Made by a program: the position numbers and the translations under genes. A model generated the notes under the pieces. The model ran no database searches. It worked only from the letters and a program-made list of their open reading frames with translations, and had not been told where the DNA came from. 64,000 bases of DNA from positions 4,544 to 68,543 of IMG/VR virus record IMGVR_UViG_3300029841_000009; one strand, written 5' to 3'. Below, piece after piece: positions 1-61,665 of the stretch. Positions within the stretch are counted from its first letter, which is position 1. The number at the start of each line of letters is the position of its first letter. This DNA is from a virus. Lineage: Duplodnaviria > Heunggongvirae > Uroviricota > Caudoviricetes.

Positions 1-980
1 ATCCCCCAGTTATATGCTGCTCCGGTCAATATTTCTGAGCCGTACTTACCATACAGTTGATTTACATAGTCACTGGCAAGCATTTCATGCTGTTGTTCGT
101 CCGTAGGGTTGTATTCAACGCCACGTTTGGCCGCCAGTTCTTTCCCTGTGCCCGGCATTAACTGGTATTTCCCCTGGGCCCTCTCTCCAGAAGATGTTTT
201 CGGTCCTTCAAGAATACTACCATCAGGATTAAAGTGACGATCACCTGATTCAACAAGGCGTATGGCACGCATGTCCATGCCTCCAGAATCATTTTTCTGA
301 AACTGACCATTTAACCATCCTTCCGGGTTAGCAGCGGCATAATTCTTCGCCCGCATTTCTGTGGCACTGCGATCATCACTTTCTATTTCTTCCAGAATGC
401 GTTCTTGTGACCATCCCCTGGCTGCTCCATATCTGGCAATGGCTACCATTCTGGAATTTCTGGCTAAAGTGGCAGTTTGCGGGTCATTCCAGGCATCCGC
501 TTCATTTTGTATCCATAATTTTCTCGTTGCCTGATATTGCTCATCTTCATAGGCATTTGTCTGCCCTATCTCATGTCTGAGAACTCCAGTACTGAACTGA
601 ATTTTCTGTGTTCTGGCTTGTTGCAAAAACATATTTCTTGCTGCTTCATCAGTCAATGAAGCAGCTATTTCTTCCACATCCTGATCAAATCCAGATATGT
701 ACTCTTGCCCCTTACCAATCGCATTTTTGCCTTGTTGTGCATAAAAACCGGTTTGAGGGTTATAAAGACGTTCATTGCTGCGCTGATTAAGCTGAAGTAT
801 GGCATCCTGAGACAATGCAACATTCGCTTTCTGCCTGGCTTCACCATATGCCACCGCATACTGATCTGCGACATTCGCCAGCACCTGACCTGCTTGAGGA
901 ACATCGAAGATCTGAAAACCACCGGTTTGCACACCACGACTTTGCACCTGGCGTCCGGATGTAGTAGGAACAACAGGCAT
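1..980 (-). CDS. Internal virion / ejection protein with lytic-transglycosylase-like motif (N-terminal part; gene runs off the left edge)
   Basis: Manual translation from ATG at 980 (overlaps the TGA of the upstream gene as TGATG) gives an uninterrupted frame to position 1: MPVVPTTSGRQ...GKYQLMPGTGKELAAKRGVEYNPTDEQQHEMLASDYVNQLYGKYGSEILTGAAYNWG. Not in the ORF track because no stop lies inside the window. Follows gp13/gp14-like genes as in T7. Confidence 0.55.
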   Translation of the reverse strand, partial: MPVVPTTSGRQVQSRGVQTGGFQIFDVPQAGQVLANVADQYAVAYGEARQKANVALSQDAILQLNQRSNERLYNPQTGFYAQQGKNAIGKGQEYISGFDQDVEEIAASLTDEAARNMFLQQARTQKIQFSTGVLRHEIGQTNAYEDEQYQATRKLWIQNEADAWNDPQTATLARNSRMVAIARYGAARGWSQERILEEIESDDRSATEMRAKNYAAANPEGWLNGQFQKNDSGGMDMRAIRLVESGDRHFNPDGSILEGPKTSSGERAQGKYQLMPGTGKELAAKRGVEYNPTDEQQHEMLASDYVNQLYGKYGSEILTGAAYNWG

Positions 981-1546
981 CAGTAACCTCCTATTTTGAA
1001 TCGGGAGTCAGAATTCATAAAACCTGAGTTAGATAACATTGGCGTGTTTCCTTGCTTACTAATCGGATTGATACTTCCGCTACCCAACTTATATGCACCG
1101 TATGCTTTTAGTGGTGCCGTTAACAAAGTGCTGGTCATCGATGATTTAGCAGCCGACTGAGCAGCAGCCCCCTGTGCCTGAGCATTCATTCCCTGAACCT
1201 GATACCCATATGCCTCACGCTGAGCATTATTCACTGTCGTTAACGCATCAAGAGTGCCGAACTGAGCATTATCCGCAAAAACGTCAAGAGCTGTTCCGCT
1301 ACTTAATTCCGCACCGGTAGCCCCCATAGTGGCCGCCGCAGTGCCTGAGCGTTGACGCATTTCACGACGACGCTGATCCGCTTCAATATTCCCACGATTG
1401 ATTGAATCCTGTGCCTGAGCTTCAGCAATTTCAGCATTCCGATCAGCTATGGCTGACTGGTATTTTGCCTGCTTGCTCTGGCTGTACATTGACGCGGCTG
1501 TGGATGCCACTGTGACGGCAACCAAAGCGATGGCTGGGTTACACAT
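980..1546 (-). CDS. Internal virion protein (T7 gp14-like position), Ala/Gln-rich
   Basis: 188-aa ORF tightly coupled to neighbours in the tubular-protein operon; size and position match T7 gp14. Confidence 0.45.
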   Translation of the reverse strand: MCNPAIALVAVTVASTAASMYSQSKQAKYQSAIADRNAEIAEAQAQDSINRGNIEADQRRREMRQRSGTAAATMGATGAELSSGTALDVFADNAQFGTLDALTTVNNAQREAYGYQVQGMNAQAQGAAAQSAAKSSMTSTLLTAPLKAYGAYKLGSGSINPISKQGNTPMLSNSGFMNSDSRFKIGGY

Positions 1547-2010
1547 TATTTTCTCTCCATGTGAAATCTGTGGAAATTAAGACCAAGAGCACCATAAGGC
1601 GCGGCTTCTTCAAGCCTGAATCCAAGCCAGTGCAGCCATGCTTTGGCAACATGGTTTCGCTCGTCGACATAGTTTTCCAGGCGCGGATAAACTGCCAGCA
1701 TCTGCTGCAATACAGGGCGGCAGTGGCGAAGAAATGTCTTCTGATATTTTTCGATACGGCTGGTTCCGACCAGCCAGGGCGTACCATTGCCACCGATCAT
1801 TGACGCCGGAGATACGCCAAACATGGTTACCAGTTCTCCGTTCGCGAACCCTGACCAGGCCATAGTCGCAGTGCGCAGACCAACACGCAGCGCATCTTTG
1901 GTAGTCATCAGCGATACCGCATACAGTTCGTCAATATCAGCCTGACGAACATCCGGCAAAATCATCTGAAGATGCTCTTCGGTTGCGGGAATAATTTGAA
2001 CATCGATCAT
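1546..2010 (-). CDS. Internal virion protein (T7 gp13-like position)
   Basis: 154-aa ORF directly downstream of the tubular B gene, sharing its stop/start junction. Confidence 0.4.
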   Translation of the reverse strand: MIDVQIIPATEEHLQMILPDVRQADIDELYAVSLMTTKDALRVGLRTATMAWSGFANGELVTMFGVSPASMIGGNGTPWLVGTSRIEKYQKTFLRHCRPVLQQMLAVYPRLENYVDERNHVAKAWLHWLGFRLEEAAPYGALGLNFHRFHMERK

Positions 2011-4481
2011 CAGAATCCCCCAACAGTAAGGCGAGGAATAACGGCAAGAACAGACAGCGGCAACGGATCAAGCTGACGGATTTTTACACGTCCGTTTTTG
2101 CCCCAGTTACTGTCCAGTTTCACTTCTACTTTTCCGGTAGCATCATCAACAGGATCATCGTAGAACTCGAATTCACGCTGTGGATATTCGTACCATTTAC
2201 CGCCGGGCGTAGTCGCCCAGATGCCGCGACTGGCATTCACAACCAGAGTAACGGACGGGATCACCTGTTTTTTGTCCAGCAGCGTTTCCTGTCCGTTAAT
2301 GTTGATATCCAGTGTTTCGAATTCAGCAGTTATTGGCAGGCCGATGTGCACTACAGCCCCCGGTGATTCCAGCGTGACGGCACCTCCGGAAACCACTTTC
2401 TGTGGTTCCACGTTCGCATCAGAGAGAATGTTTACGGTCTGGCCTTCAAGATGAGACAGGCCTCCAAATGTCCGGCGCGCCATCTGCCAGTTCGTGGTGG
2501 CCACATTCCTGAGGGATGGCGGGACGTTCCTGTTAGCACGAACCACTACAGCGGTATTGCTGGTTACAGAAATAATGTCGCAACGTAATTCTTTTGACAC
2601 CTCATCGCCAGTATCAGGATCAGTTCCGGTATAAGGGAACTGTAGTTGCGCGCCGACATCACTACTGGTGAAGTACGCACCACCAGAAACACTGATTGTA
2701 TATTCCGCGCGGTAATCCCATTCGCCAGAACCACCAGTGATGATCATCGTTCTGTCAGACGTATTTCTTCCATCATAGCTAAGGCCAGAATCAACAAAGA
2801 AAGCATCTTCATCGCTGGTAAATAAACGGCTGGACAGTCGCTCGATGTATCTCACTGTTTGCCCGTTAACGGTTCGGTTAACGACGAAATACACCGCATC
2901 TTCATTGCCTTCGCTGATACTGCATGTGCTTTCATATTTTCCGGTACTGGATTGTGGTGCCCATGCAAAAACCTGCTGATCACGCAAATAGGTCATCACC
3001 AGTAATTTACCGTCATCACGGATGCAGAAGGCGCTGGAGTAAGGGACTATTGAGAAGCACCAGTCAACAATGCTGTGCTTCTGAAAAAGATGATTGGCAA
3101 GGATAGTAAGGTCGTTCCCCTGATAGCCGTCAACATCGAATGAGTAGGCCAGATCACGGACAACACTGCCTTTCTCCTGGACGAACAGAGCAATATTCGC
3201 CACGGCAATTGGTGGGACATTGCTCGAGCCATTTGATCCCTGAGAGCTGAATGCAAATGATGATGGGGTAAGCACTTTGTTCTGGTCGCCAGTGATGACG
3301 TACTCACCTCCGGAAGTCAGCGCCACCAGCGAACCAACATCAATCAGGTGGCGGATCTCATTAACCTGACGCCCGGCATAGGTGTAGATAATTCTGTCGT
3401 CATCCTGCGTAGGATTGCTTTTGCCAAAATCCTTATAATCCCCGGTACGGCTGGCCCAGATAGTCTGAGGAAACGCAGTCGATGCGGCGAAGTAAAGACG
3501 TTGTTGATAATAAACAACAGTGCCAGGATAACCATTAACACTGTTCCAGGCATATTTAGCCCATTTATAGCTGGCATTATCCTCGCCAACTACCTGCGAA
3601 GGGATATAGGAAATCACCTCGGCAGTTGCAGTAGTTCCATTTGCAGCAGAGATACGGGCAATGCCAAAACCACTGTGCAGATACTCCCACTCAATGCCGG
3701 TATCATCATCACCGGATCCGCCCCAGCCATCCCATGATGTGCCTTCTGTATGCGAAGGGCGCAAAGTGCCTGTTTTGCCTACTGTAACGGCGCGATAGTA
3801 GTTACTGTCTGCACGGCGAATATCGCCAATTGACGTACTCTTACTGGTTTCCCATACCGGCACAGAATCCACTGCAGGCTGTTCCAGATAGAACAATTTG
3901 CCTACCTGCTCCGCGCCAAAAATAGAGGCGCTTGCCGTTAACGTAATTGTCCCGGTGCTGGCGCTGGCATAAACCGTCACTGACTCGTCAATATTGATAT
4001 CTTCAAATGGTCCGTTCTTCGTTACCACATCAACCAGTTGCCAGTTGTCATGCGCATAGCGACGCAACTCTTTCGGCGGGTATGCCGGATGAACAAGCGT
4101 AAGCACGTCGGCGCTTTGCGTGAATTTAATTCGGAACAGATCGGCTTCAGTATATGGCGTGGCAATTTCATAAATAACATTGCTGCTGTTCAGCACCAAC
4201 GCACCATCTTTGATAACGCGCATGTACTGGTGTCCGAACTCCAGAGCATAGGTCTGAACCGTCGAGAACTGGAACGGGATCAGGCGGCATTTCCGATTTG
4301 GGTATTTGGCGGCACCGACAAAACGCGTACCTGGTCGATTCTCAACGCCGCCATACTGCCGCACGATAAAGTTATCGCACTTGCGCAATGCCACCTGGTA
4401 CTTCGCCATGTCAATACGCCCGTACAACGACGGTCCAATCTCACCACCGGCAAAGCTGGGCTGGATCCAACTGATAGCCAT
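2010..4481 (-). CDS. Tail tubular protein B-like (T7 gp12-like)
   Basis: 823 aa; N-terminus MAISWIQPSFAGGEIGPSLYGR resembles the gp12 N-terminal pattern; follows the tubular A gene. Confidence 0.55.
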   Translation of the reverse strand: MAISWIQPSFAGGEIGPSLYGRIDMAKYQVALRKCDNFIVRQYGGVENRPGTRFVGAAKYPNRKCRLIPFQFSTVQTYALEFGHQYMRVIKDGALVLNSSNVIYEIATPYTEADLFRIKFTQSADVLTLVHPAYPPKELRRYAHDNWQLVDVVTKNGPFEDINIDESVTVYASASTGTITLTASASIFGAEQVGKLFYLEQPAVDSVPVWETSKSTSIGDIRRADSNYYRAVTVGKTGTLRPSHTEGTSWDGWGGSGDDDTGIEWEYLHSGFGIARISAANGTTATAEVISYIPSQVVGEDNASYKWAKYAWNSVNGYPGTVVYYQQRLYFAASTAFPQTIWASRTGDYKDFGKSNPTQDDDRIIYTYAGRQVNEIRHLIDVGSLVALTSGGEYVITGDQNKVLTPSSFAFSSQGSNGSSNVPPIAVANIALFVQEKGSVVRDLAYSFDVDGYQGNDLTILANHLFQKHSIVDWCFSIVPYSSAFCIRDDGKLLVMTYLRDQQVFAWAPQSSTGKYESTCSISEGNEDAVYFVVNRTVNGQTVRYIERLSSRLFTSDEDAFFVDSGLSYDGRNTSDRTMIITGGSGEWDYRAEYTISVSGGAYFTSSDVGAQLQFPYTGTDPDTGDEVSKELRCDIISVTSNTAVVVRANRNVPPSLRNVATTNWQMARRTFGGLSHLEGQTVNILSDANVEPQKVVSGGAVTLESPGAVVHIGLPITAEFETLDININGQETLLDKKQVIPSVTLVVNASRGIWATTPGGKWYEYPQREFEFYDDPVDDATGKVEVKLDSNWGKNGRVKIRQLDPLPLSVLAVIPRLTVGGF

Positions 4482-5086
4482 CAGGACAACCTCGCAATGG
4501 TAAACTCGTCAACCGGTGGCTGTGGTTCCTGTGATTCATTCTGGCTATGCGAGCCAGCACTAAGAATCACGCGATTGTACATATTGAGAGCAAATGTACC
4601 GAGATCCGCATTCCCAGTCAGCGCCATGTTAATGGCTGCCGCAAGACGCCAGGCCAGCGCCTCCATAAAAATGGCATCAAACATGTTTACATCTGAAACG
4701 CGAGAGACATACTTGAGCCATGCCTGCGGCTGGTCTGTGTAGATCAATTTTCCTGTTCCGTTGGTGTCTGCACCAACTTCGTACTGAACGCGCATTGCTG
4801 CTGTTGGATTGCGTACACCAGGAAGCATAATTTCAGTAATGCGCAGACAATCTGACGGGTACTGGTACGCATATTCCCAGTCAGGCGGTGGATTGCTCGT
4901 ATCTGCAAGCGCCACGCGTTTGGTAGCAAAGTTCCAGTCAAAATCAGAAAGCACAGCATCACGGCAGGCCTCAAAGTGCAGCGAACATTCCCCCGCTTCC
5001 TTGCTGGCTTCCGTCAGGCTGTTAATGCTGCGGCTGTTGCCAATATTGGACAGCGCACGATTGCAGATCTCTACTACAGAGGCCAT
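4481..5086 (-). CDS. Tail tubular protein A-like / head-tail adaptor (T7 gp11-like)
   Basis: 201 aa; N-terminal pattern ...ALSNIG...W.F resembles gp11-type adaptors; size and order fit. Confidence 0.55.
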   Translation of the reverse strand: MASVVEICNRALSNIGNSRSINSLTEASKEAGECSLHFEACRDAVLSDFDWNFATKRVALADTSNPPPDWEYAYQYPSDCLRITEIMLPGVRNPTAAMRVQYEVGADTNGTGKLIYTDQPQAWLKYVSRVSDVNMFDAIFMEALAWRLAAAINMALTGNADLGTFALNMYNRVILSAGSHSQNESQEPQPPVDEFTIARLS

Positions 5087-5142
5087 AAGTTTCTATACTC
5101 CTGCAATAAAGGGGCCGAAGCCCCTTGTCTGATTCGCGAGGC

Positions 5143-5487
5143 TTACACGCCCAGTTCTTTACGCTTATCTGCGATCTTCTCGCGTAGCGTTTCGGCTTTG
5201 GCGTTATGGTGTGGCTTCTCGTTAAAGAGCAATTCGTACTCTTCACGGAGCTTATCCAGTTCACCATCATCTGACACATCGTTGATGATTTTGGTGCTGG
5301 TTGCTGCCATTGACACCTTTCCTGCAACTTTTGCTTTTGCCTGTCTGGCTGCATCGTTAACAGGTTCCAGTGCGCTACCAGGCTCACCTTCGTATTCGAT
5401 TTCTGCCCCCTCCGGCCACAGAGTGTTATGGATATGAGAGAGGCGCAGAACGCGGTATCTTGGTTTCTCACCTGACATCGATATCAC
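5143..5487 (-). CDS. Hypothetical protein in virion module
   Basis: 114-aa ORF between capsid-associated genes and tubular A; charged C-terminus. Confidence 0.35.
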   Translation of the reverse strand: MISMSGEKPRYRVLRLSHIHNTLWPEGAEIEYEGEPGSALEPVNDAARQAKAKVAGKVSMAATSTKIINDVSDDGELDKLREEYELLFNEKPHHNAKAETLREKIADKRKELGV

Positions 5488-5488
5488 C

Positions 5489-5926
5489 TTAACCAGTTAC
5501 TTTTGAGCGGATCGGGTACGGCGTATTGGCATCAACATCCAGACTGATACCCGCAGTGAATTTGCCAGCCGTTAGTGGGCCAGTTGCGACGGAGTAGTTA
5601 ACACGCAGATATCGCTGAACACCGGCAGGCACCTTTGCAGAAACAACTCGTTTACCTGCTGTCAGGGCGGTCTTTGCCAGTGCGCCACTATCATAAATAG
5701 TGGTCCATGAGCTGTTATTCTCACTCGTCTGCAACTGGATGTTTACAGTTGCATCACCGCTTGCCGCGGCGGCTGCGTTAACCAGCGCCCAAAACTCAAG
5801 CGGGTAACCCACGCCGATATCACGACGTTTTCCGTCAATTGGACCGAGATCGATTACGTCAGTAGAAGCCGCGGTATTCGTAACCGCCTGAGCTTCGGAG
5901 AACATCAACAGTTTGTCGGTGATCAT
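5489..5926 (-). CDS. Hypothetical capsid-associated protein (possible decoration / minor capsid)
   Basis: 145-aa Ala/Thr/Gly-rich ORF immediately downstream of the major capsid gene. Confidence 0.35.
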   Translation of the reverse strand: MITDKLLMFSEAQAVTNTAASTDVIDLGPIDGKRRDIGVGYPLEFWALVNAAAAASGDATVNIQLQTSENNSSWTTIYDSGALAKTALTAGKRVVSAKVPAGVQRYLRVNYSVATGPLTAGKFTAGISLDVDANTPYPIRSKVTG

Positions 5927-5977
5927 CTTCTTTCTCCATTAGTGGGTCTGTTACGACCCACAGGTTAATAACAGGCG

Positions 5978-6970
5978 TTACACCACGCGGGCTTCTGTTT
6001 CCAGAAGCGCATCAGTTTCACGGATTGGTACACCACGGAATGAAGTCCACCACTCGCCTTCAGTCTCTTTTACGCTGATAGCCAGAGATGTTTTCTCCAG
6101 AGATTGCAGATCAAGAGCCTGGCCTACAGTGCGGTTCATGTAGAACACCGGGCGGCCCATGCCACGGTTTGGAATGCGATGTAGTGCTTTAACCATCAAC
6201 TTCGCAATATTTGCGGCAGAGGATGGTTCTGAAATATTGCTGACATCGATGTTTGCAATGCGAACAACATAACGCCAGTCACGCAGAGCAAGTCCGTTAT
6301 CCCATTTGTAATGGGTGCGATAGCCTTCGTACTTGCCGCCATTAGCATCTTCCAGTGTCACCTGGCCTTTATCTTCCATCTGGATGCCAGCCTTCTGCCC
6401 TTTCGGGAAGATGCCATGCACGGTGTTTTCGCCCCACACCACTAACCAGATTGAGGTGTTATCTGTACCCGTGCCACCAGCATCAATGATGTTCTGAGCA
6501 TTACCCGCAGACAGGCTGGAATAGCGGGAGGACAGTCCCATAAACTGCTGAGGGTTAACGCTGGAATCACCATAAAACAGCGTCTGCGCCATCTGCTGAT
6601 TCATCGCTTCAATAAATGCGCGGTCTTCAGACAGGCGGAATTCGGCGGTATTGCCGTTCAGATCAGCCAGTGACTTATCGACTTCCGCATAGGTTTCCAG
6701 CATGCCAACGGAATCGGTTACCTGCACTGTGGTTGATTTGCTTGGCTGTACGCCATAGTTCAGCAAACGCCAGGTAGCTGAAGGTAAACCAGAACGAATG
6801 GTGGTTCGGTGTCCGGTAGGAAGGTTCCCTTCGACAAAAGGCATATCCTGAAGGATCGGGTTAGTTTGACCGAGAAGCTCGATAATCTTATCGACTTTCC
6901 CGTTTGGATCGACGCGCTTACCCCAGTCAGCCAGCGTTAGCGCAGTTAAGCCTTTAACAGCCATTGTCAT
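5978..6970 (-). CDS. Major capsid protein
   Basis: 330 aa, between scaffold and tail genes; size and position of T7 gp10-like capsid protein. Confidence 0.65.
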   Translation of the reverse strand: MTMAVKGLTALTLADWGKRVDPNGKVDKIIELLGQTNPILQDMPFVEGNLPTGHRTTIRSGLPSATWRLLNYGVQPSKSTTVQVTDSVGMLETYAEVDKSLADLNGNTAEFRLSEDRAFIEAMNQQMAQTLFYGDSSVNPQQFMGLSSRYSSLSAGNAQNIIDAGGTGTDNTSIWLVVWGENTVHGIFPKGQKAGIQMEDKGQVTLEDANGGKYEGYRTHYKWDNGLALRDWRYVVRIANIDVSNISEPSSAANIAKLMVKALHRIPNRGMGRPVFYMNRTVGQALDLQSLEKTSLAISVKETEGEWWTSFRGVPIRETDALLETEARVV

Positions 6971-6978
6971 TTCCTCTC

Positions 6979-7680
6979 TTATTTGCCATAGAGCACTTCG
7001 GCCGCACTACGCTGGCCTTCATTACCACCGGTGACCATGCCATCTTCAGACATCGCCTTTCCGATTTTCACGAACGTTTTGACCAGATCAGGGTGATTAC
7101 CCAGCCCGGTGGTGTTCAGATATTCTTTGAGTTCAGGTGTCCCGAACTGGTCAAGCGCACGCTGTGCGGCGCTAAGGTTAGAAATCAACTTGTCGCCACC
7201 GATTTCTTTGTCGGCTTTTACATCCGCTGCCCACTGCTCGGTTGTTTTCTGCCAGGCTTCTGCCTGGCGCTGCTGAACACCTGCCAGAATCTTCGGATAA
7301 GCATCAACCAGCTTTTGCGCTTGCTCGTTGGTCAGGTTTAGTTCTCGCGCCACCGGCTCGAATTCCTTCAACGCTTCTGTATCCAGCTCTACGCCTTCGG
7401 CAGCCTGAAACTCGTACTTTTCAGGCGCACCCTCTGGTTTATCGCCGTCCTTTTTTTCATCCTGCTTATCGTTTTCAGGCTTTTTGTCATCAGCAGGTTT
7501 ATCGCCATCAGCAACAGGTTGTGGCTTATCACCTTCCTGTTGTGATGGATCACCAACTGGAGCAGGGTTATCACCTGCAGGCGCTGACGGTTCTGACGCA
7601 GCCGGAGCTGCTCCACCATCGACTGGTTGCTCATTGCAAAGACGGCGATACAGCAAACGCTCAAATAAATTCATGATCAC
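6979..7680 (-). CDS. Scaffolding protein
   Basis: 233 aa, highly acidic with a Pro/Ala/Asp/Lys-rich low-complexity N-terminus and helical C-terminus; lies between portal and capsid. Confidence 0.6.
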   Translation of the reverse strand: MIMNLFERLLYRRLCNEQPVDGGAAPAASEPSAPAGDNPAPVGDPSQQEGDKPQPVADGDKPADDKKPENDKQDEKKDGDKPEGAPEKYEFQAAEGVELDTEALKEFEPVARELNLTNEQAQKLVDAYPKILAGVQQRQAEAWQKTTEQWAADVKADKEIGGDKLISNLSAAQRALDQFGTPELKEYLNTTGLGNHPDLVKTFVKIGKAMSEDGMVTGGNEGQRSAAEVLYGK

Positions 7681-7973
7681 TCCTGTTCACTGGCCTCTTT
7701 GGCCATCTTCAAATACTGTTCAGGGCAATGCGCCATAACGCGCTGAAACAGTTCCAGCGCCAGATTGCGTTGCCCCTCATTAAATGCCATTGCCATAGCG
7801 TCCATCGGTGAGATAGCGGAAAACACACGGCCTTTCTCCAGCACCGACCAGACAACGCGACGCCCCTGTTCACTGCTCATGACAAAGCGAATGTCATCAA
7901 TTTCACGCTGTGCCATGTCACGTTGCTTACGGGCGTTTTCTTCTTTCAGTTGATCATCTTCGTAATCTGTCAT
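7677..7973 (-). CDS. Hypothetical small protein
   Basis: 98-aa ORF between portal and scaffold, overlapping both. Confidence 0.35.
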   Translation of the reverse strand: MTDYEDDQLKEENARKQRDMAQREIDDIRFVMSSEQGRRVVWSVLEKGRVFSAISPMDAMAMAFNEGQRNLALELFQRVMAHCPEQYLKMAKEASEQE

Positions 7974-9649
7974 TGTGATTGCCCACCCTGACCACTAACT
8001 GCATTCGCCATAGCTGACAAAACACTCGGATCCGAAGTTTTAGCTTCGCTTAGCGTCTTGGCACCCTGTGCCGCCGCCATCCCCATCGCCATCATTTGTT
8101 GCTGCTGTTGTTGCTGTGCCCGTTGCTGGCGAGCCTGCTCAACCTGTTCCTGCGGAACAATGACGGTTGGAGACACTCCGGACATATCAGCGAATGCATC
8201 GATCGCCTGATCAACGTTGAGTTTGTCGAGAGCTTCTGGTTTCGCTTGCGCAAGTTGACCAATGAAGTTAACCGTGGACGCCAGACTGGACAGGCCGATA
8301 GACTTCTGCGCCTGAGCCATGACGGAAATGTATTCGACCTTCAGGGGCATACCTTCCATCACGTCTGGCGGTGGCGGCAGCATGTTTTTACGCACCATCA
8401 TCGAGAAAGAGCGGTCAATGAGAGGATTAAGACATTCGTCGTTCAGACGCTCCAGAACCGGCCCCAACATCAGAAGTTTTTCTTCTTTCATTTCGATCAC
8501 CGCTTCAACAGGCATCGAGCGGGTATTGATGTTCTGCAACATCATGAACAGATCGACAAAGTAGGCGCTGTTAATGATTTGACGAGTGTCCTGAATGTCT
8601 GCCACCAAATCTGCTGTACTGGGGTTAACCAGATAAGCAGGCCTGAAACCATCCTGACCAGTAATCTGATCGATATACGTGATGTCGCCAGGAAGAAGGG
8701 AGGCACGCTGATTCTTGAGGGAAGTCGGAGCAACCATCGGCGGATTGGTGGCTTTATCAATCAACTGCGACTTGCGCTTCTGGAGAAGCTGCAATGCCTT
8801 AACAGGTCCAAGCGCCAGCATACCCGGGCATGATGATCCATAAACATCTTCGCCGTTAACTTCCCAGCGCGGGGCCATAATTGGAAACTCATCGAATCCG
8901 GACTCACGCAACAACTTGTCGTTATCGCCACCAACCTCGTAATAAACCGATTTGAATGGCTTGTTCTTGCTATCCAGCTTCGATGTATCGCGGTCAATGT
9001 TCGGGTAAACCGAATGCATCACTTCAATCCACTTCTCGTAGGTTCCGCTTTCCCACATGCTTTTTACGGATTCGCTGACGTTATTTAGCCCGAACTCCTG
9101 AACAAGCTGACGAACAGTCATAGAGAACTTGCGAAAACAGGTGTCCACACTGCCACGAGGTGAGTTAGCCAGGTAGTAACTGCCTATCGGGAATGGCATT
9201 GTGCGAATGATGTCCTCGTCATCCTCCAGCACTGCCATTGCACCAGTGCTGTATGTGCCGAGGCTTCCGTATAACTGCGGCAGCGACTGATAGAGATTCG
9301 ACTTATTGAACATATCGTTCATGCGGTTCTGCACCGCCTCAAGCCACAACTTAACAGGGCCATAATCCATCATTTCAGGATCTGGCGTAGCCAGGCGAAA
9401 CCACGGACGCGCGGGGCTTGTGATGCCTGACATCATGCCGCTGGCGAGAGTGCGCGCCGCCATAGTCCCGGTCGAATCAATAATGCGTGTATTGCGTCGA
9501 TCGTTACGGTTGACCTCAGAAGTCAGAAAGCGGGAACCACGCGGGTTGATGTAATCACTCAACTCGCGCCAGTGCGGCTCGAACGACTGACGCTCGCTTT
9601 CAAGTTGTGCGAACTGTTTGTTCAATCGCTCTTTAGTTGTTTCCGCCAT
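7970..9649 (-). CDS. Portal / head-to-tail connector (T7 gp8-like)
   Basis: 559 aa; C-terminus QQQQQQMMAMGMAAAQGAKTLSEAKTSDPSVLSAMANAV resembles the Gln/Ala/Met-rich C-terminus of T7-type connectors. Confidence 0.75.
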   Translation of the reverse strand: MAETTKERLNKQFAQLESERQSFEPHWRELSDYINPRGSRFLTSEVNRNDRRNTRIIDSTGTMAARTLASGMMSGITSPARPWFRLATPDPEMMDYGPVKLWLEAVQNRMNDMFNKSNLYQSLPQLYGSLGTYSTGAMAVLEDDEDIIRTMPFPIGSYYLANSPRGSVDTCFRKFSMTVRQLVQEFGLNNVSESVKSMWESGTYEKWIEVMHSVYPNIDRDTSKLDSKNKPFKSVYYEVGGDNDKLLRESGFDEFPIMAPRWEVNGEDVYGSSCPGMLALGPVKALQLLQKRKSQLIDKATNPPMVAPTSLKNQRASLLPGDITYIDQITGQDGFRPAYLVNPSTADLVADIQDTRQIINSAYFVDLFMMLQNINTRSMPVEAVIEMKEEKLLMLGPVLERLNDECLNPLIDRSFSMMVRKNMLPPPPDVMEGMPLKVEYISVMAQAQKSIGLSSLASTVNFIGQLAQAKPEALDKLNVDQAIDAFADMSGVSPTVIVPQEQVEQARQQRAQQQQQQQMMAMGMAAAQGAKTLSEAKTSDPSVLSAMANAVSGQGGQSQ

Positions 9650-9663
9650 TTCAATGACTCCGG

Positions 9664-9870
9664 TTACTGACCAAGCAGCGTTTTACCGCTGGTATTAGCG
9701 GTTGATGTGTCGCCCTGAGAACCGGTAAGCAGCGTAGAACTACGACCAGCAGCAGCGCGACGGCGACGAGTTTCTTCGTCGCGGGCATCAACAACGGCGG
9801 CATCCTGCTCCTGTGGTGCTGCCTGAACTTCTGGTGTTGCAGGCACTGATGGTGAGCTACCCATGCACAT
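9664..9870 (-). CDS. Hypothetical small low-complexity protein
   Basis: 68-aa ORF ending 15 nt before the portal start; Ala/Thr/Gln-rich; coding status uncertain. Confidence 0.25.
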   Translation of the reverse strand: MCMGSSPSVPATPEVQAAPQEQDAAVVDARDEETRRRRAAAGRSSTLLTGSQGDTSTANTSGKTLLGQ

Positions 9871-10297
9871 ATCAATGACTCCGTACGCAATTAAATTATT
9901 ACCAATTTAACCACATATGATTTATTTATCGTAGATAGTTGACATTTAACGCACAAATTATTACCTTTCAGGTAACCAAAGAATTCATTCCGGTTACTAA
10001 CCTGACTGGCTTGTCGTTAAATTGAACAGGTGGAGTGAGCTTTTATTTTGAGCAGTACGGCGTATGGCACATGCGCCGATAGCGGTCTGGATACGTTTAA
10101 GGGGCACCCTCCCTGGCTGTGGCAAACGAACCAGGTAGCCGGAATGTGCAAGTCGAGCGGTTTTATTCCGCGCACGGGGATTCACCATCCCGGCGATTCG
10201 GTGTGACGCCTCGGAAGAGACGAGGGTACAACGATGAGAGCATTTATGGAGCCGCGACAAAGTGTGGCGCCTTAACAGGCTAAGTGCTCTCAGCGTT

Positions 10298-10374
10298 GTG
10301 GCATTAGCTCAGTCGGACAGAGCAACCGCCTTCTAAGCGGTTGGTCGCAGGTTCGAATCCTGCATGCCACGCCA
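10298..10374 (+). tRNA. tRNA-Arg (anticodon UCU)
   Basis: Cloverleaf read by hand: acceptor GTGGCAT/ATGCCAC, D-arm GCTC..GAGC, anticodon stem ACCGC/GCGGT with loop CTTCTAA, T-arm GCAGG-TTCGAAT-CCTGC, discriminator G, CCA. Confidence 0.8.
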
Positions 10375-10537
10375 GAATCACGCCTAAGGACCGTGATGCC
10401 AGAAGTTCCAGGTGCTTGGCGGTGATGGTTTCCCTTGAAGGACTATCACCACCCTTTTTACAGCAGGACGCCATTGCGATGACTTCATGCTGTAAACCAG
10501 TACAGCCACGGAAGGCATAACTCATTGCTTCCAGTTC

Positions 10538-10561
10538 GCCCGATTCGCCGGGCATTTTTTT
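10538..10561 (+). terminator. Rho-independent terminator downstream of the tRNA
   Basis: GCCCG-attcgc-CGGGC hairpin followed by ATTTTTTT. Confidence 0.5.
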
Positions 10562-10572
10562 AAGGTGAGATT

Positions 10573-10944
10573 ATGAACGACCAGCAAATCGAAAAAGAAA
10601 TCGTTGAGAAAGGCAAAACGGCACCGCGCGTTACGCCAGACCATATCGAAGGCATTATTGCTCAGGAGGCATATTTCACAGCAGAAGATGGTGCCTTTGG
10701 CAAAGCCATAAAAGAGAAACATACTGGCGGAGAGGTAAACTACCAGCCGCACGAATCACTTTCTCTGCTGACGTTCTGCGTCCTGGTGCTGCGCAACGGC
10801 TTCACCGTCACCGGAGAGAGCGCCTGTGCAAGCCCGGAAAACTTTGATGCGGAAATTGGTCGGAAGATTGCCCGGCAGAATGCTGTAAACAAAATCTGGA
10901 TGCTCGAAGGTTACTTGCTGAAGCAGAAGCTAAGCGAGCAATAA
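10573..10944 (+). CDS. Hypothetical moron protein (opposite orientation to the structural operon)
   Basis: 123-aa ORF with strong SD (AAGGTGAG) 4 nt upstream of the ATG; sits with the tRNA between TerL and portal on the opposite strand. Confidence 0.5.
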   Translation: MNDQQIEKEIVEKGKTAPRVTPDHIEGIIAQEAYFTAEDGAFGKAIKEKHTGGEVNYQPHESLSLLTFCVLVLRNGFTVTGESACASPENFDAEIGRKIARQNAVNKIWMLEGYLLKQKLSEQ

Positions 10945-11034
10945 CGCCGTGACATGTCACAATCAGCCAGCCTATGAGCTGGCTTTGTTTTATCCTCACC
11001 AGAGGATATCAGCAGCATTATCCCATCCAGCGGA

Positions 11035-12510
11035 TTAAGCATAGGGATCGTAATCTGTGATGGCTTTGCCTTGCTGGTTCTGCTGCCCGGGAATTCGCAG
11101 ACGCTTCGACACAGGGAACGCAAACGTCAGCAGTAGCGCATCGCCTTTACCAGGAGAACGCCCAAGTCGCTCTTTGATATCTTCCTTCGGTTCGATAACG
11201 ATTTTACCGTCCACGCGAACTTTGTACTCTGCCGTCGACAGGTCGTCCGCTGTTTCCTGGTCATCCAGCATGCCGCCGAGCCTCAGCCATGTCTTGCATG
11301 AGTTGAACATCTCCCCACGCTTGTTGAGCATCTGCGGGTCAGTAGACGCGCCACCGAACGGAACAAGTTGCCATGTACGACCCCAGCCGTCACCGATTGA
11401 CTTCAAACCGGTTCCGTAACCGAAGTCGATGAACACCGCGTCAGCCTGATACTGGTCTTCAAAGTCAGCGATACGCTTCGCCATAATCAGATCGTCGGTA
11501 GTCTTGTTGCCAGTCCACAGCACCTTACTGTGTAGCCCCTGCCGCAGGTATATCACCGCGTCATCAACGCCTGAATATGCCGGGTCAACACCGATTATCA
11601 CCGGAGCATGTGCAACCTGCGCAGCGGTTACCACCCGTTTCATTGCCTCGTCAGTAAGACCGGTAGGGATAAACTGCAATTCAGATGCATCAGGGAATAT
11701 GCCACGCACACGGATTTTAACGAAGTCGCTATCTTCCCCGTAGTCATCAACCCATTTCTGCAACTGCTGTTTGTTGGTGCCTTCCACCGTCCTGCTGTCA
11801 ATCTGCGCAGTTTTCCAGCGGTGTTTGTATTTGCGGAAACATTCACGGAAACGCCCGGTGTTACGTGTAGGGTTTCCGAAAGCCACCCAGATAATCTCAG
11901 TGTCTTCGTCCGTTAGCGCACCCTCGGCAACTTCCCACACCAGATCCGCAATGTTCGACGCTTCATCAAATACCACAATGATGCGTTTACGCTCGTTGTG
12001 TAGTCCGGCGAATGCCTCAGTGTTGTGCTCAGACCAGGGGATTGCGTCAGCTCGCCACCGCTTGTCGTGCCCAGGGTCATTGCTGTACATCGCGGTAGCG
12101 GTACAGGTAAACCAGTCTTTCGTGATAGCAAGGTTTGACCACTTGATAATTTCCGGCCAGGTCTTCGTTCGTAGCTGGTTGTCGGTGTTGGCGGTCACCA
12201 CGACCTTACAATCCTCGCAAGTGGACATGCCCCAGTTGATCAGCATTGAGATGAATGCGGATTTACCAATACCGTGACCAGAAGCACGTGCCAGCATAAG
12301 CGGCTGATATCGCGTCTCTGGATTCTGCAGGTGATCACGTATCTCTCGGAACGCATCAGCCTGCCACTGACGTGGGCCGGTGGCATGTGCCAGTTCAGTC
12401 CCCTCTTCCCCCCATGGGAACGCATAGAGGGCATAGCCAAGCGGATCGTGAGTGAACCCTGCAATATCCTCGATTAACTGCTCTTCAGGAGATAACGCTG
12501 TATCTGTCAC
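11035..12510 (-). CDS. Terminase large subunit
   Basis: 491 aa; Walker-A-like GHGIGKS near the N-terminus; directly downstream of TerS. Confidence 0.8.
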   Translation of the reverse strand: MTDTALSPEEQLIEDIAGFTHDPLGYALYAFPWGEEGTELAHATGPRQWQADAFREIRDHLQNPETRYQPLMLARASGHGIGKSAFISMLINWGMSTCEDCKVVVTANTDNQLRTKTWPEIIKWSNLAITKDWFTCTATAMYSNDPGHDKRWRADAIPWSEHNTEAFAGLHNERKRIIVVFDEASNIADLVWEVAEGALTDEDTEIIWVAFGNPTRNTGRFRECFRKYKHRWKTAQIDSRTVEGTNKQQLQKWVDDYGEDSDFVKIRVRGIFPDASELQFIPTGLTDEAMKRVVTAAQVAHAPVIIGVDPAYSGVDDAVIYLRQGLHSKVLWTGNKTTDDLIMAKRIADFEDQYQADAVFIDFGYGTGLKSIGDGWGRTWQLVPFGGASTDPQMLNKRGEMFNSCKTWLRLGGMLDDQETADDLSTAEYKVRVDGKIVIEPKEDIKERLGRSPGKGDALLLTFAFPVSKRLRIPGQQNQQGKAITDYDPYA

Positions 12511-13184
12511 TGATTGCCATCCTGACGTTCTTTCAGTCTCTTCCTGGCTGCCGCTATGCGATCAGCAATTGTCACATTCACATTAACATCCAGGCGTTCT
12601 TTGAATGCGTTGACGTCGACGTGCTTACCAATCAGTTCGAGGTTCTTCACCTTGTCAGGCCATTTAATTTTTTTGAGGATGCCAACCAGCTCTTTCTCGT
12701 CTCCACGGCCTTCGAACATGTCGGCCAGTTCGAAACCTGTCAGGTACTGCCGCCAGACCTTAGGCCATTCCGAGACCGGCTTGATGCTCATATCGTCGTT
12801 GAGAATGTCAATCACGTCCATCTGGTCGATCTCCACCAGGCGCATGAGAACGTAATCAGCACTGACGCGCATTCGTTTGTTGCGCTCCTCCATCAACTCG
12901 GCAATCCGTTTCTGAATGCGTTCATCGCGCATCATGACACTGGCTTTAACTGCCGCTGTATTTGGGGAGAATCCTGCATTAATCGCAGCCTGAGTCTGGT
13001 TTTCAGGCGTTTTGATGTATGACTGGCAATAAGCCTCCTGCATTGCTGTTAGTGGCTTAAATTGCGTTGATTTGCGTTTATAGGTTTTAGGTTCAGCAGG
13101 CATCATAACCACCGTGGTAATAGTTACCGTTGTGGTAATAGTACCATGCAAAATAAAGCCGCCATAGTTGGCGGCAGTATTCAA
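12507..13184 (-). CDS. Terminase small subunit (true start probably near 13106)
   Basis: Helical DNA-binding N-domain pattern (QEAYCQSYIKTPENQTQAAINAGFSPNTAAVKAS) of small terminases; the poly-Thr N-terminal extension in the ORF is probably untranslated. Confidence 0.65.
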   Translation of the reverse strand: MNTAANYGGFILHGTITTTVTITTVVMMPAEPKTYKRKSTQFKPLTAMQEAYCQSYIKTPENQTQAAINAGFSPNTAAVKASVMMRDERIQKRIAELMEERNKRMRVSADYVLMRLVEIDQMDVIDILNDDMSIKPVSEWPKVWRQYLTGFELADMFEGRGDEKELVGILKKIKWPDKVKNLELIGKHVDVNAFKERLDVNVNVTIADRIAAARKRLKERQDGNQ

Positions 13185-13224
13185 AACCCATCAAATTCAT
13201 CATGCATAACCCACTCGTGACATG

Positions 13225-13578
13225 TCACAATATTAATTTCGTTTCATGCCAGCCTTTAGTCACCCAGCATTGCGAGTCACCATTACACGGGCATGAATTC
13301 ACAGGAACTCTCTCGCCGCACTTACCGCAACGTTTTCTGCTGATCGATTTTATACGCCCGTGCACGCGCGCATCATCCTGGCGGATCAGTAACGCTATAT
13401 ACTCACCAAATTCGTAAGGCGCACGCCCGGGGCGACGTGTGGCACAGTTACGCTCCAGCATTTCAATTTCCTGAGCATCAAGCACAATCTCCAGCTTACG
13501 CACACCAGATGCAGCTTGTCTGGCTCTCTGAGCGGCTTTGCGCTCTGCTGCTGCCTTAGCCATTACCATATCCACCAA
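13225..13578 (-). CDS. Hypothetical protein with Cys-rich C-terminus
   Basis: 117-aa ORF upstream of TerS; CGKCG...CPC motif suggests zinc binding. Confidence 0.35.
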   Translation of the reverse strand: MVDMVMAKAAAERKAAQRARQAASGVRKLEIVLDAQEIEMLERNCATRRPGRAPYEFGEYIALLIRQDDARVHGRIKSISRKRCGKCGERVPVNSCPCNGDSQCWVTKGWHETKLIL

Positions 13579-13648
13579 ACTTCACCAGACATGATTCTCG
13601 CAATCACTATCATCACCAAAGTGATAATCACAACTTTAACTGGCGGCA

Positions 13649-14026
13649 TCATTCACCATCCTGCTCCGGCGGTTCTGGCAGCGGCATCCAGTGGGTTACC
13701 TCCTTGAGATACAGGTCTTCGCCACCACCGTCATCCCAAGTGGGCTTGCCATCATTAAACCAGTCGCCATATACGCCGACCTGAGTGTTGGGGATGCTTG
13801 GTGGGTAGTTGTTTTTAAAGTCAGCAGCTAACACATAGCATTGTCGCTCTCCCATTTCTGGCATTCGTTCACTACAGCTTATCCAACTCTCCGGAGTTAC
13901 CGGAGAGTTGCCAGCCTCATACGCCACACGCATCCAGTGCATAAGCGTTTCAGTGCTCACACAGCCGCAATCAACATCAATTTTGCCGTGCTGCTGTTCC
14001 AGCCATTGCTCAAGCGTAGTGCTCAT
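13649..14026 (-). CDS. DUF551-like protein
   Basis: C-terminal THWMPLPEPPE motif typical of lambdoid DUF551 proteins. Confidence 0.55.
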   Translation of the reverse strand: MSTTLEQWLEQQHGKIDVDCGCVSTETLMHWMRVAYEAGNSPVTPESWISCSERMPEMGERQCYVLAADFKNNYPPSIPNTQVGVYGDWFNDGKPTWDDGGGEDLYLKEVTHWMPLPEPPEQDGE

Positions 14027-14256
14027 TTTTCATCCCCCCGATGATGCCATCTGCATCGCATCTCATAACACCCCCACTCAACACGAAAACCACATAGCCT
14101 GTGCAGATCCACCCACTTCTGCGCCATCGCTGGCGACGTGTAAATCACAGTGAATGCGTTATCTTCGTTGTCGATTTGCGTAAACGTCACTTTGTACAAC
14201 AACCCACCGTCGACACATGCTGTGTTCAACGATTTATTGCTAATACCCTCAATCAT
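14023..14256 (-). CDS. Hypothetical protein
   Basis: 77-aa ORF coupled to neighbours. Confidence 0.35.
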   Translation of the reverse strand: MIEGISNKSLNTACVDGGLLYKVTFTQIDNEDNAFTVIYTSPAMAQKWVDLHRLCGFRVEWGCYEMRCRWHHRGDEK

Positions 14257-14900
14257 TCGTACTCACCCCCCGCTGTTTTGAATTTGATCTCCGCTGCCTG
14301 CAATGCGTGTTCGACGTCGAAGCGGTCCAGCCATCCACCAAAGTGGTGCGGCATCATTACCACCCGCTCACCGCTATTTATTGGGTGGCCCATACGGGGT
14401 TCGTAGCCGTCCGGTAACTCGACTTCCCGCGCTTCCAGTTCTGCTATGCGCTTCTCTGATGCTTCAAGTAACGCCTGCTTATCGCGTAGCGCTTCTTCCA
14501 GTTCAGCAACATGGCACTCACTATCAATAAGGTTGTTCTCTGCGGCTTCCAGCTCAACACGCAGCTTCCCTACCGTTAGCGCAATATCCTCGTTCTCTTG
14601 GTCGCGGCGTTTGATGTATTGCTGGTTTCTTTCCCGTTCATCCAACAATGCCAGCACGGTAACTGGATTGGCTGCGGCGATGAATTCAGCATTGGCCTGC
14701 TGTTCCATTTGGAAATCTTCATCGAAACCGCTTTCAGGATGCGCTCCTTCAATTCTGCAAATGGGAAGATATCCAACAACTTCACGATGAATTAGCGCAT
14801 CACCAGCATCAAATCTCTCCTCTCCATATTCTAGCGACCACACACCACACGTTGCTTTTTCTGCCTTAGCACGCAGTGCCTGGTAATTAATTTCGCTCAC
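14253..14900 (-). CDS. Ead/Ea22-like protein
   Basis: N-terminus MSEINYQALRAKAEKA and coiled-coil core LLDERERNQQYIKRRDQENEDIALTVGKLRVELEAAE, as in lambdoid Ead/Ea22 proteins. Confidence 0.55.
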   Translation of the reverse strand: MSEINYQALRAKAEKATCGVWSLEYGEERFDAGDALIHREVVGYLPICRIEGAHPESGFDEDFQMEQQANAEFIAAANPVTVLALLDERERNQQYIKRRDQENEDIALTVGKLRVELEAAENNLIDSECHVAELEEALRDKQALLEASEKRIAELEAREVELPDGYEPRMGHPINSGERVVMMPHHFGGWLDRFDVEHALQAAEIKFKTAGGEYE

Positions 14901-15137
14901 TGGCTGCCTCCTGCTTTTCTGCCTTCAACACCATGCGAGAACCATCATCCAGCTCCCACACTATCTCACCACCTTCAGCCATGACCAGTTGCCACACCAA
15001 TTGAGCAGCCTCATTGGTAACATCACGACCTGGATCATTGCCAACGCGCATACGTCCACCTTCAACATCGCGCATTTTTGCCAGCATGATAGTTTTTGAT
15101 AGCGGTGAAAAACCAAGCTGTAGTCGTGCTGAATTAC

Positions 15138-15764
15138 TCACTGGTTGCCTCCTTTGCGAAGCTGTTCCGCCCATTCTTCAAGGGATTTCTCCGCATATTC
15201 ACCGGACAGGCCATCAATCGGATGCGCTTCATTAACCAACTCTTCTTTCGCTGACAAAATCATGCGTGTAACGTCGAAAACTTCACGCAAAGACTTATTG
15301 ATAAATCCGTGATTGAACGCAGCAGCAAGACGGCTGGCGGTATAGTTAATCCCCTCGTTGCGTGCTTCCGCACGAATTTCAGCCAGAAAAGCATCGGTAG
15401 CTGGAGTTTCGCTGTGGTGTAGGGCATCATTGATAATCATTGCAGCAACACCAGCCTGCCCTGCATCCGTGACCGACACATGCTCAAGAGTTACGGCCAT
15501 TGCGTGTTTCAGTCCGTCGTTCTCCACCACCAGCGCAGCGAGATTAGTCTCATACTCCGCAATTCGGCACATAGCATCGATATTTGTGTCCTCCAGCCGC
15601 TTAATTTCATCCAGTAGCGCCAGCACAACCTGCGGTGTGACCTTCATACGAAACGCGAGCAATTTTTGCGGCGTTGCCACGACTTTTATTGCTTCTGCTG
15701 CCTCACGCAGTGCCTGGTAATTAATTTCGCTCACTGGTTGCCTCCTGAATACGCTTAAACTCAA
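15138..15764 (-). CDS. Ead/Ea22-like protein (paralog)
   Basis: Contains SEINYQALREAAEA; its 3' ~250 bp is near-identical to 63750-64000. Confidence 0.5.
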   Translation of the reverse strand: MSLSVFRRQPVSEINYQALREAAEAIKVVATPQKLLAFRMKVTPQVVLALLDEIKRLEDTNIDAMCRIAEYETNLAALVVENDGLKHAMAVTLEHVSVTDAGQAGVAAMIINDALHHSETPATDAFLAEIRAEARNEGINYTASRLAAAFNHGFINKSLREVFDVTRMILSAKEELVNEAHPIDGLSGEYAEKSLEEWAEQLRKGGNQ

Positions 15765-19497: not shown

Positions 19498-19730
19498 CAG
19501 CGCCCCTTACCATTGATAAAGAGGTTGAACTCGTTGATTAACTGGACATACATGCTTCTGGCCGCGTAGTTCTTTGCCAGCTCTTTACGGGATGAGATCC
19601 CGCAAAACTCACGCAGAATCACAGAGGCCTCAGAACTGTTTGAAACGTTCTTCCCTGTTTTACTGGTCAGAAAGCGCCAGAATTGGGGATTCTGGCAATG
19701 CATCGCAGCACCGCGAACATAACTACTCAT
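19497..19730 (-). CDS. Hypothetical protein
   Basis: 77-aa ORF, coupled. Confidence 0.35.
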   Translation of the reverse strand: MSSYVRGAAMHCQNPQFWRFLTSKTGKNVSNSSEASVILREFCGISSRKELAKNYAARSMYVQLINEFNLFINGKGR

Positions 19731-31334: not shown

Positions 31335-31378
31335 ATGTTCGCTCTTGCGTCCACGGAAAACCAACGTATAATGGGAGT

Positions 31379-31460
31379 TGTCGAGGCGCCCATGGATTGT
31401 TGTTGTTGGTTTTCCGTGGATGTCGCAAGAAGCCCGCAGATTTATCTGCGGGCTTTTTGT
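31379..31460 (+). ncRNA. CopA-like antisense RNA candidate opposite the repA leader
   Basis: Plus-strand promoter TTGCGT-16 bp-TATAAT (31345-31372), stem-loop, and terminator GCCCGCAG-attta-TCTGCGGGC-TTTTT (31430-31458). Confidence 0.35.
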
Positions 31461-31502
31461 TTCCATATCTGGTCACTTTCCAACCAGACACCCACAATCA
31501 TA

Positions 31503-59800: not shown

Positions 59801-59876
59801 TGGTGGCCCCTACCGGATTTGAACCGATGACCGTGCGATTATGAGTCGCCTGCTCTAACCACTGAGCTAAGGGGCC
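59801..59876 (-). tRNA. tRNA with CAU anticodon (tRNA-Ile2-like, or Met)
   Basis: Minus-strand read GGCCCCTTAGCTCAGTGGTTAGAGCAGGCGACTCATAATCGC...GGTTCAAATCC...GGGGCCACCA; close to my recollection of E. coli ileX in acceptor, D and anticodon arms. Confidence 0.8.
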
Positions 59877-61652: not shown

Positions 61653-61665
61653 TGAAATCCTCGTT

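Follow-up and report, generated by a model that had tools for sequence, protein, structure and literature searches.

The virus record IMGVR_UViG_3300029841_000009 of IMG/VR (Caudoviricetes) contains, in the 64,000-nucleotide stretch from position 4,544 to position 68,543 that was analysed here as a whole and is called the window below, a run of virion genes in an order that resembles that of phage T7, which raises the question of what kind of phage these genes come from and whether they belong with the CI/Cro-like switch found further into the same stretch. A sequence-only reading had taken window 1-13184 for a T7-like virion module, with its terminase genes first, in a temperate genome and downstream of that switch. 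Our analysis shows that window 1-14912 is almost certainly the late (morphogenesis) half of a temperate podophage of Escherichia coli of the epsilon15/phiV10 type (Uetakevirus), encoded on the minus strand, and that the switch is part of a different element, a phage-plasmid, which fills the remainder.

Gene content, gene order, family membership, the fold of the adaptor and near-identity to known phages were observed directly. In megablast comparisons of window 1-13200, Escherichia phages TL-2011b and phiV10 and the O157 typing phages 9 and 10 were 97.4% identical at the DNA level over 88-93% of the stretch, and phages ZX5 and PAS61 (vB_EcoP_ZX5 and vB_EcoP_PAS61, both classified as Uetakevirus) were 98% identical. 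For the group of phiV10, ZX5 and PAS61, the matches were collinear with 97-98% nucleotide identity and covered 85-93% of the stretch, as is expected of a Uetakevirus of which the late half alone is visible. Salmonella phage epsilon15, the type species, was more distant, with 78% DNA identity (75-83% across the aligning regions). Furthermore, window 3649-14912 (11.3 kb) is an unbroken 99.7% match to a prophage (L046) in one E. coli assembly, and the match ends at position 14912. The late operon is syntenic gene for gene with TL-2011b gp20-gp37 and with epsilon15 gp1-gp15, in the Uetakevirus order TerS-TerL-portal-gp5-gp6-capsid-cement-gp9-adaptor-nozzle-gp13-gp14-gp15 with the gp10 staple gene absent, and its genes match PHROG families for terminase, connector, head, tail and internal virion proteins. 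The homologues with solved structures are the portal, connector and 'Tail Nozzle' of phage Carin-1 (8CK0, 8CK1) and the capsids 3J4U, 8CJZ and 3J40. The P22-type portal, coat and gp4 adaptor that would mark a P22-like podophage were looked for in the window and were not found. This type of podophage is a common and well-described E. coli prophage; for instance, the 90%-identity cluster of its nozzle protein has more than 4,500 member sequences.

The packaging and head genes, all on the minus strand like the rest of the operon, begin with the small terminase subunit TerS (12507-13184; an open reading frame (ORF) of 225 amino acids (aa); Pfam PF03592 Terminase_2, 3e-29), which is syntenic with epsilon15 gp1 and is called as the same 225-aa gene in E. 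coli prophages. It is followed by the large subunit TerL (11035-12510; 491 aa; PHROG 2 'terminase large subunit', 9.9e-53), for which a PDB search gave no useful match and which has 94-97% nucleotide identity to TL-2011b gp22. The terminases do precede the portal, as the sequence-only reading had stated. The portal itself (7970-9649; 559 aa) is of the T7 gp8-type family (Pfam PF12236 Head-tail_con, 2.7e-187, full length) and matches the Carin-1 portal (PDB 8CK0_A, 1.5e-178). Downstream lie a small Bbp19-like protein (7677-7973; 98 aa; Pfam PF25181 Phage_Bbp19, 2.8e-17), syntenic with epsilon15 gp5, and a putative scaffolding protein (6979-7680; 233 aa; PHROG 458, 1.9e-111). The major capsid protein (5978-6970; 330 aa) has the HK97 fold of the epsilon15/BPP-1 type (Pfam PF20911 GP7, 5.2e-149), and it scored as an equivalog of NCBIfam NF045672 MCP_gp7_epsi_15 (1.8e-123; 411.9 bits against a cut-off of 75), which places it with the capsids of Uetakevirus. 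When compared with PDB sequences by phmmer, it scored nearer to the capsid of Bordetella phage BPP-1 (3J4U_A, 1.8e-128; taken as the BPP-1 capsid according to a note in the epsilon15 RefSeq record) than to epsilon15 gp7 (3J40_A, 3.6e-85), and 8CJZ was matched at 2.2e-87. The capsid gene is followed by a gene for a capsid cement protein of the Bbp16 family (5489-5926; 145 aa; Pfam PF21190 Bbp16, 3.5e-47), a homologue of which carries the RefSeq name 'Bbp16 family capsid cement protein', and by a gene for a homologue of epsilon15 gp9 (5143-5487; 111-114 aa; 40% identity by BLASTP, 4e-19; PHROG 590), for which a PDB search with the 114-aa form gave no useful match.

The capsid staple gene, gp10 in epsilon15 and gp32 in TL-2011b, is cleanly absent from the window (5086-5143, compared with TL-2011b 19652-20025). 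We considered whether this was a deletion of about 320 bp specific to the window and rejected that idea, since 35 IMG/VR contigs and the three prophages L045-L047 have exactly this junction; the staple-less arrangement is therefore the commoner form and no peculiarity of the window. Phages of the phiV10 type may depend on cement of the BPP-1 style alone, which is consistent with a capsid nearer to that of BPP-1.

The tail and ejection genes follow on the same strand. The head-to-tail adaptor (4481-5086; 201 aa) was recognised in a fold search as having the T7 gp11-type 'tail tubular protein A' fold, and the tail nozzle (2010-4481; 823 aa) is a distant homologue of T7 gp12 that matches the Carin-1 'Tail Nozzle' (PDB 8CK1_A, 5.7e-217) and, in a PDB profile search, 23sh_T 'nozzle gp13' (1e-5). 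With 18,304 cluster representatives at E<=0.001, the family to which the nozzle belongs is a very large one. An AlphaFold model of the nozzle, made with 20 close homologues of 82-90% identity, was unusable, with a predicted local distance difference test score (pLDDT) of 38.9 and a predicted template modelling score (pTM) of 0.27. Next come an internal virion protein A-like protein (1546-2010; 154 aa; PHROG 308 'internal virion protein', 1.3e-62), which is syntenic with epsilon15 gp13 and whose relation to T7 gp13 is taken from the literature alone (PMC4819975), and an internal virion or ejection protein of the T7 gp14 family (980-1546; 188 aa; PHROG 418), residues 1-163 of which align with positions 1-172 of the 187-position profile Pfam PF24072 T7_gp14 (31.6 bits, cut-off 27). 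The flanks of the latter gene are 96-98% identical to TL-2011b, and the gene itself looks like a local mosaic replacement within the ejection-protein cluster. The last ORF, open from an ATG at 980 to position 1, is cut by the edge of the window and encodes the N-terminal 326 aa of a large internal protein homologous to epsilon15 gp15 and TL-2011b gp37, with 96% nucleotide identity to the latter. The SLT-like motif noticed in it earlier proved to be a Pfam SLT lytic transglycosylase domain (PF01464; residues 260-326; 23.9 bits, cut-off 21.3).

Several points weigh against the Uetakevirus assignment or restrict what can be concluded from it. The module is cut at position 1, and the tail spike, a second large internal protein and the lysis genes are outside the window; in TL-2011b, the tail spike and lysis genes sit past the point that matches window position 1, and the earlier statement that the tail fibre and lysis genes of the module are missing was borne out for the tail spike and lysis genes. 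Furthermore, the lysogeny module of the podophage is not in the window, where the phage-plasmid lies upstream instead, and therefore an intact, inducible prophage cannot be shown for this copy. The tail spike, the O-antigen modification genes, the integrase and the podophage's own CI and Cro, which are present in TL-2011b, epsilon15 and prophages L045-L047, lie here past position 1 or are displaced by the phage-plasmid. In the gp14-family gene (991-1542), the window has a divergent allele, which megablast did not align to TL-2011b. Finally, naming the 233-aa protein a scaffold lacks support from homology, with Pfam, NCBIfam and PDB searches all without a match. An ORF does stand between the portal and the capsid, as had been noted, and its position together with an acidic, proline-rich N-terminal stretch makes a scaffold the putative assignment, but no family supports it and PHROGs labels the family 'protease', although without a recognisable protease domain.

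The relation to the named phages can thus be described by what is kept and what differs. The order from TerS to the SLT-bearing internal protein is identical to that of TL-2011b and phiV10; TL-2011b differs from the window in having gp32, the staple homologue, and a different gp14-family allele, and both phages differ in that the window has mosaic accessory genes upstream of TerS and a phage-plasmid where the replication and immunity genes normally follow. With epsilon15 (capsid PDB 3J40), the window shares the synteny of gp1-gp15 and the gp7-equivalog capsid but not the gp10 staple gene. The capsid, Bbp16 cement, Bbp19, portal, adaptor and nozzle are homologous to those of BPP-1 (Bordetella) and Carin-1 (Cobetia), with E-values from 1e-17 to 1e-217, whereas these phages have other hosts and other tail spikes, and protein identity reaches about 50% at best (nozzle).

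The remainder of the window, 15149-64000 or three quarters of the whole, is one full turn of a myovirus phage-plasmid of about 48.6 kb. The E. coli plasmid pMB9698_3, a circle of 47.7 kb, aligns collinearly over almost its entire length with window 15730-61838, with 98-99% identity; a related sequence is on deposit as Yersinia phage vB_YpM_41. On pMB9698_3, a phage-plasmid, repA and parA are found together with the gene for an XRE repressor, from which an early operon diverges, with two holin genes and an endolysin gene, and with a separate set of virion genes (terminase, portal, capsid, sheath, tube, tape measure, baseplate and tail fibre). The accessory genes between TerS and the join (13225-14900, minus strand), namely a regulator-like gene of 112-117 aa, a DUF551 gene, a 77-aa ORF and an Ead/Ea22 gene of 215 aa (Pfam DUF551 and Ead_Ea22), are, as judged from alignment, still those of the podophage, for they lie inside the unbroken match to L046 and their order is kept in L045-L047. 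In both elements, the late genes are preceded by a mosaic module of accessory genes that includes Ead/Ea22 genes; that of the podophage has DUF551 in addition. At the join there is a direct repeat (15149-15404 and 63745-64000) of 256 bp with 97.3% identity, the two copies being 48,596 bp apart, or one plasmid unit; the repeat is the 3' part of an Ead/Ea22-family gene, and the second copy stops exactly at the edge of the window.

Whether the join exists as a molecule is the sole point of possible wider interest at this locus, and the prospects that it is instead an assembly or binning chimera formed at the shared Ead/Ea22 gene seem to us evenly balanced. The shared 256-bp stretch has a 131-bp identical core, long enough to mislead a short-read assembler. 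Neither complete E. coli genomes nor PLSDB plasmids were found to hold the two elements side by side, and all 21 of the 21 contigs that contain the exact neighbouring 232-aa protein are stand-alone and of plasmid size. A plasmid contig from JGI metagenome 3300045988 matches the right end of the window (61000-64000) with 100% identity, and the right repeat copy is plasmid-type at the sole diagnostic base before the window ends, and thus not a reciprocal hybrid. On the other side, the structure is that expected from a Campbell-type crossover, with a full 48,596-bp plasmid unit between direct copies, and the left copy shifts from plasmid-type bases at its 5' side to phage-type bases at its 3' side around the identical core. 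Since the two copies differ at 7 positions, the repeat is neither a collapsed repeat nor the overlap of a circular contig. Phage-plasmids are described in a published study (PMC10879196) as often recombining with phages, which we also counted against a chimera.

The same observations could reflect a real cointegrate, in which the phage-plasmid of about 48.6 kb was inserted by homologous recombination at the shared Ead/Ea22-family gene of an epsilon15-like prophage, at a site with the early region on one side and the late region on the other; we put this forward as a tentative possibility, about which we are somewhat doubtful. The switch of bases in the left copy fits a single crossover that inserts the plasmid circle, and an assembler that changed path at the core would give the same pattern equally well. 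If the cointegrate is real, the podophage late operon would lie directly downstream of the early operon of the phage-plasmid, and the fusion of a phage-plasmid with a prophage would have been caught in the act, and two unrelated virion modules might be cross-controlled or mobilised together; it would illustrate how accessory genes common to both allow phage-plasmids to fuse with integrated prophages. Searches with short sequences from the join were negative or ambiguous within their scope: a 60-mer (14880-14940) had no match in GTDB genomes and matched in IMG/VR a mobile 295-bp DUF7446 module alone, a 39-mer at 15130 had no match, and exact-protein look-ups with three junction ORFs found none, probably as a result of start-codon choice. 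A 158-mer representing the 'hybrid' Ea22 allele was tried as a marker of the junction and rejected, because this allele is widespread (15 IMG/VR and 8 metagenome contigs); its presence in many unrelated phage contigs makes it not diagnostic of the join. Three IMG/VR contigs of 17-108 kb that are unrelated elsewhere share the 295-bp DUF7446 gene module (14870-15164) with 100% identity, and the module appears to be a small cassette exchanged between phages.

The CI/Cro-like switch at 20.2-21.6 kb, consisting of an XRE repressor (20908-21564, plus strand; a CI-like helix-turn-helix (HTH) protein of 218 aa) and its Cro-like partner (20239-20733, minus strand; 164 aa), is that of the phage-plasmid and not that of the podophage. 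It is very improbable that a single large hybrid phage makes up the whole window and that its podovirus late operon is controlled by this switch. Such a reading would account for a contiguous sequence, for a join that lies inside an intact Ead/Ea22-family gene with its frame unbroken, and for genes that run in one direction from about 20.7 kb to position 1. In contrast, window 15730-61838 corresponds to almost all of a circular 47.7-kb phage-plasmid that is self-sufficient, the same pair of 218-aa HTH and 164-aa genes occurs in stand-alone plasmid contigs of 39-49 kb, and the related element vB_YpM_41 is on deposit as an independent phage. Moreover, ordinary relatives of the podophage use another repressor (a 194-aa HTH protein) and another Cro-like gene (76 aa), after which come genes for replication that are DnaT-like and lambda-P-like, and all of these are missing from the window; two complete sets of virion genes in about 88 kb are not a known design of a single phage. 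Therefore, calling the setting temperate was right for the type of phage but not for the reason given, as the switch cited in evidence is that of the neighbouring phage-plasmid. This correction is the practical value of the analysis, since any regulation of the late operon deduced from the window alone would be wrong; the finding as it was originally given matters little, because the prophage type is common and its kinship with T7 was published in 2016.

That kinship bears on the first part of the question. The claimed gene order of portal, scaffold position, capsid, tubular protein A, tubular protein B and internal proteins is real, as a co-directional minus-strand operon in window 1-13184, and T7 shares the order of portal, capsid, adaptor, nozzle and internal proteins as well as an SLT domain on a large internal protein. 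The match to T7 gp8-gp16 held for the order and for homology of the tail and ejection genes but not beyond, for the head, scaffold and terminase genes are not T7-type and the order is interrupted by three genes with no T7 counterpart, those for the Bbp19-like protein, the Bbp16-like cement and the gp9-like protein. The T7 late region was retrieved and each pair of T7 and window proteins was compared. Pairwise BLASTP against T7 gp8, gp10, gp11, gp12, gp14 and gp19 gave nothing significant. With family profiles, T7 gp8 was also found in PF12236 over its full length (2.8e-113), so that the portal is T7-like at the level of family. Pfam PF25675 Phage_nozzle, the family of T7 gp12 (1274 bits for T7 gp12 itself), was not matched by the window nozzle, but, in a diverse set of 31 nozzle homologues with 37-52% identity to the window protein, 14 matched it, the best with 1.9e-13, and a profile of the nozzle homologues aligned by hhalign to T7 gp12 with E=1.8e-4 over 190 columns (T7 residues 270-466). 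The window nozzle is, as far as these profiles indicate, a superfamily relative of T7 gp12 linked through intermediate sequences, and not a member of its family. The window adaptor did not match Pfam Tube (PF17212), and an alignment of 35 adaptor sequences gave no signal against T7 gp11 in hhalign (E=0.54; effective number of sequences (Neff) 2.1). A gp14-family protein followed by a large SLT-bearing internal protein occurs as in T7, with the SLT domain placed differently: it lies about 260 residues into a protein that flanks the gp14 homologue, whereas in T7 it is at the N-terminus of the gp16-sized protein.

The head and packaging half is not T7-type in its capsid, cement, putative scaffold or terminases. 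T7 gp10A and gp9 match Pfam Gp10A-like and Phage_T7_Capsid, whereas the window capsid matches GP7 alone, and the 233-aa protein did not match Phage_T7_Capsid, the T7 scaffold family. TerL had no similarity to T7 gp19, and the terminase genes, which are last in T7, come first here. The window phage type is temperate and its relatives have no phage RNA polymerase; no such gene is annotated in the complete genomes of TL-2011b and epsilon15, and none was seen in the window, at which no polymerase-directed search was aimed. Distant homology with T7 is supported for the tail and ejection half at the level of profile and fold, and searches with the portal, tubular proteins and capsid thus gave a divided answer, in that the portal and tubular proteins are distantly related to those of T7 and the capsid is of the epsilon15/BPP-1 type. 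The sequence-only reading had itself stated that structural proteins matching another lineage would speak against T7, and they do match those of epsilon15, BPP-1 and Carin-1. That the module is a true temperate member of the T7 lineage, an Autographiviridae-like virion module moved into a lambdoid genome, is extremely improbable and already mostly refuted: the portal family shared with gp8, the T7_gp14 membership of the 188-aa protein, the adaptor fold, the superfamily link of the nozzle and protein sizes near those of T7 gp8, gp11 and gp12 would agree with it, but no tested T7 protein is significantly similar in pairwise comparison, the capsid is GP7 and not Gp10A-like, the window proteins lack T7 scaffold, Tube and Phage_nozzle matches, TL-2011b and epsilon15 lack a gene for a phage RNA polymerase and have terminases first, and among solved structures the nearest are those of Carin-1, BPP-1 and epsilon15.

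The kinship of the tail and internal proteins of epsilon15-type phages with those of T7, and the separate origin of their capsid and terminase, are already known from work published in 2016. Hardies et al. (2016) described homologues of tubular tail proteins A and B in the epsilon15 group, gp11 and gp12 being A and B, with a strong match between hidden Markov models (HMM-HMM) of the epsilon15 gp12 and T7 gp12 groups; the internal virion proteins IVP-A and IVP-B were syntenic, and the epsilon15 terminase and capsid were placed with those of siphoviruses, which implies horizontal transfer (PMC4819975). In the RefSeq record of epsilon15, too, gp11 is said to match T7 tail tubular protein A by HHpred, and a 2022 review describes a T7-like internal core stack in epsilon15 (PMC8954989).

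For the epsilon15/phiV10-type podophage, a course of assembly and ejection can be proposed in which roles and stoichiometry would follow those of the solved relatives by homology. TerS and TerL would package DNA through the T7 gp8-family portal into a procapsid built from the HK97-fold capsid protein of the epsilon15/BPP-1 type, with the 233-aa protein probably acting as scaffold and the Bbp16-type cement protein stabilising the shell. The short tail would be formed next from a ring of the gp11-type adaptor and the gp12-type nozzle. The gp13-like, gp14-family and large SLT-bearing proteins would be packaged as an internal core and, on infection, be ejected, so that they could cut the peptidoglycan and form a channel through the cell envelope.

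Between TerL and the portal, the stretch 9870-11035 is a variable region. It contains, on the plus strand, an accessory ORF of the N4 gp49/Sf6 gp66 family (10573-10944; Pfam PF13876, 8.1e-35), which is also present in prophage L046 and after which there is a terminator-like hairpin (10965-10984), and a tRNA-Arg with anticodon TCT (10298-10374, plus strand), predicted by ARAGORN and annotated as tRNA-Arg in the relatives at the matching position. An 83-aa minus-strand ORF that overlaps this tRNA is annotated as a gene in relatives. A 68-aa ORF of the ORF list (9664-9870, minus strand), for which a family search gave no match, is likened to epsilon15 gp3 by position and size only, and a 68-aa gene occupies the equivalent position in L045-L047 and in epsilon15.

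In the phage-plasmid, the genes located were repA (30486-31466) and those for the tail fibre (32405-35209), tape measure (39541-42333), sheath (43317-44780), portal (48804-50378), large terminase (50626-52482) and a GH108 endolysin (60445-60987; 180-aa ORF) with holin genes adjacent to it. A tRNA at 59801-59876 was called Met (CAT) by ARAGORN, and RefSeq annotates tRNA-Ile in the corresponding stretch of the plasmids.

Related podophage genes were also seen in records of other kinds. Phage PH444 (PP350014.1, an unverified 'complete genome' of 114.9 kb) also carries these podophage late genes, in two parts, one at about 75.6-89.6 kb and the other in the last 1.9 kb; this record looks composite or permuted, and the phage-plasmid is not contained in it. 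In PLSDB (records NZ_CP079771.1 and NZ_CP084708.1), an epsilon15-like virion module is present in a 41-kb E. coli 'plasmid', which is probably a circular phage genome, and such modules also occur, at about 77% identity, in several large Klebsiella plasmids.

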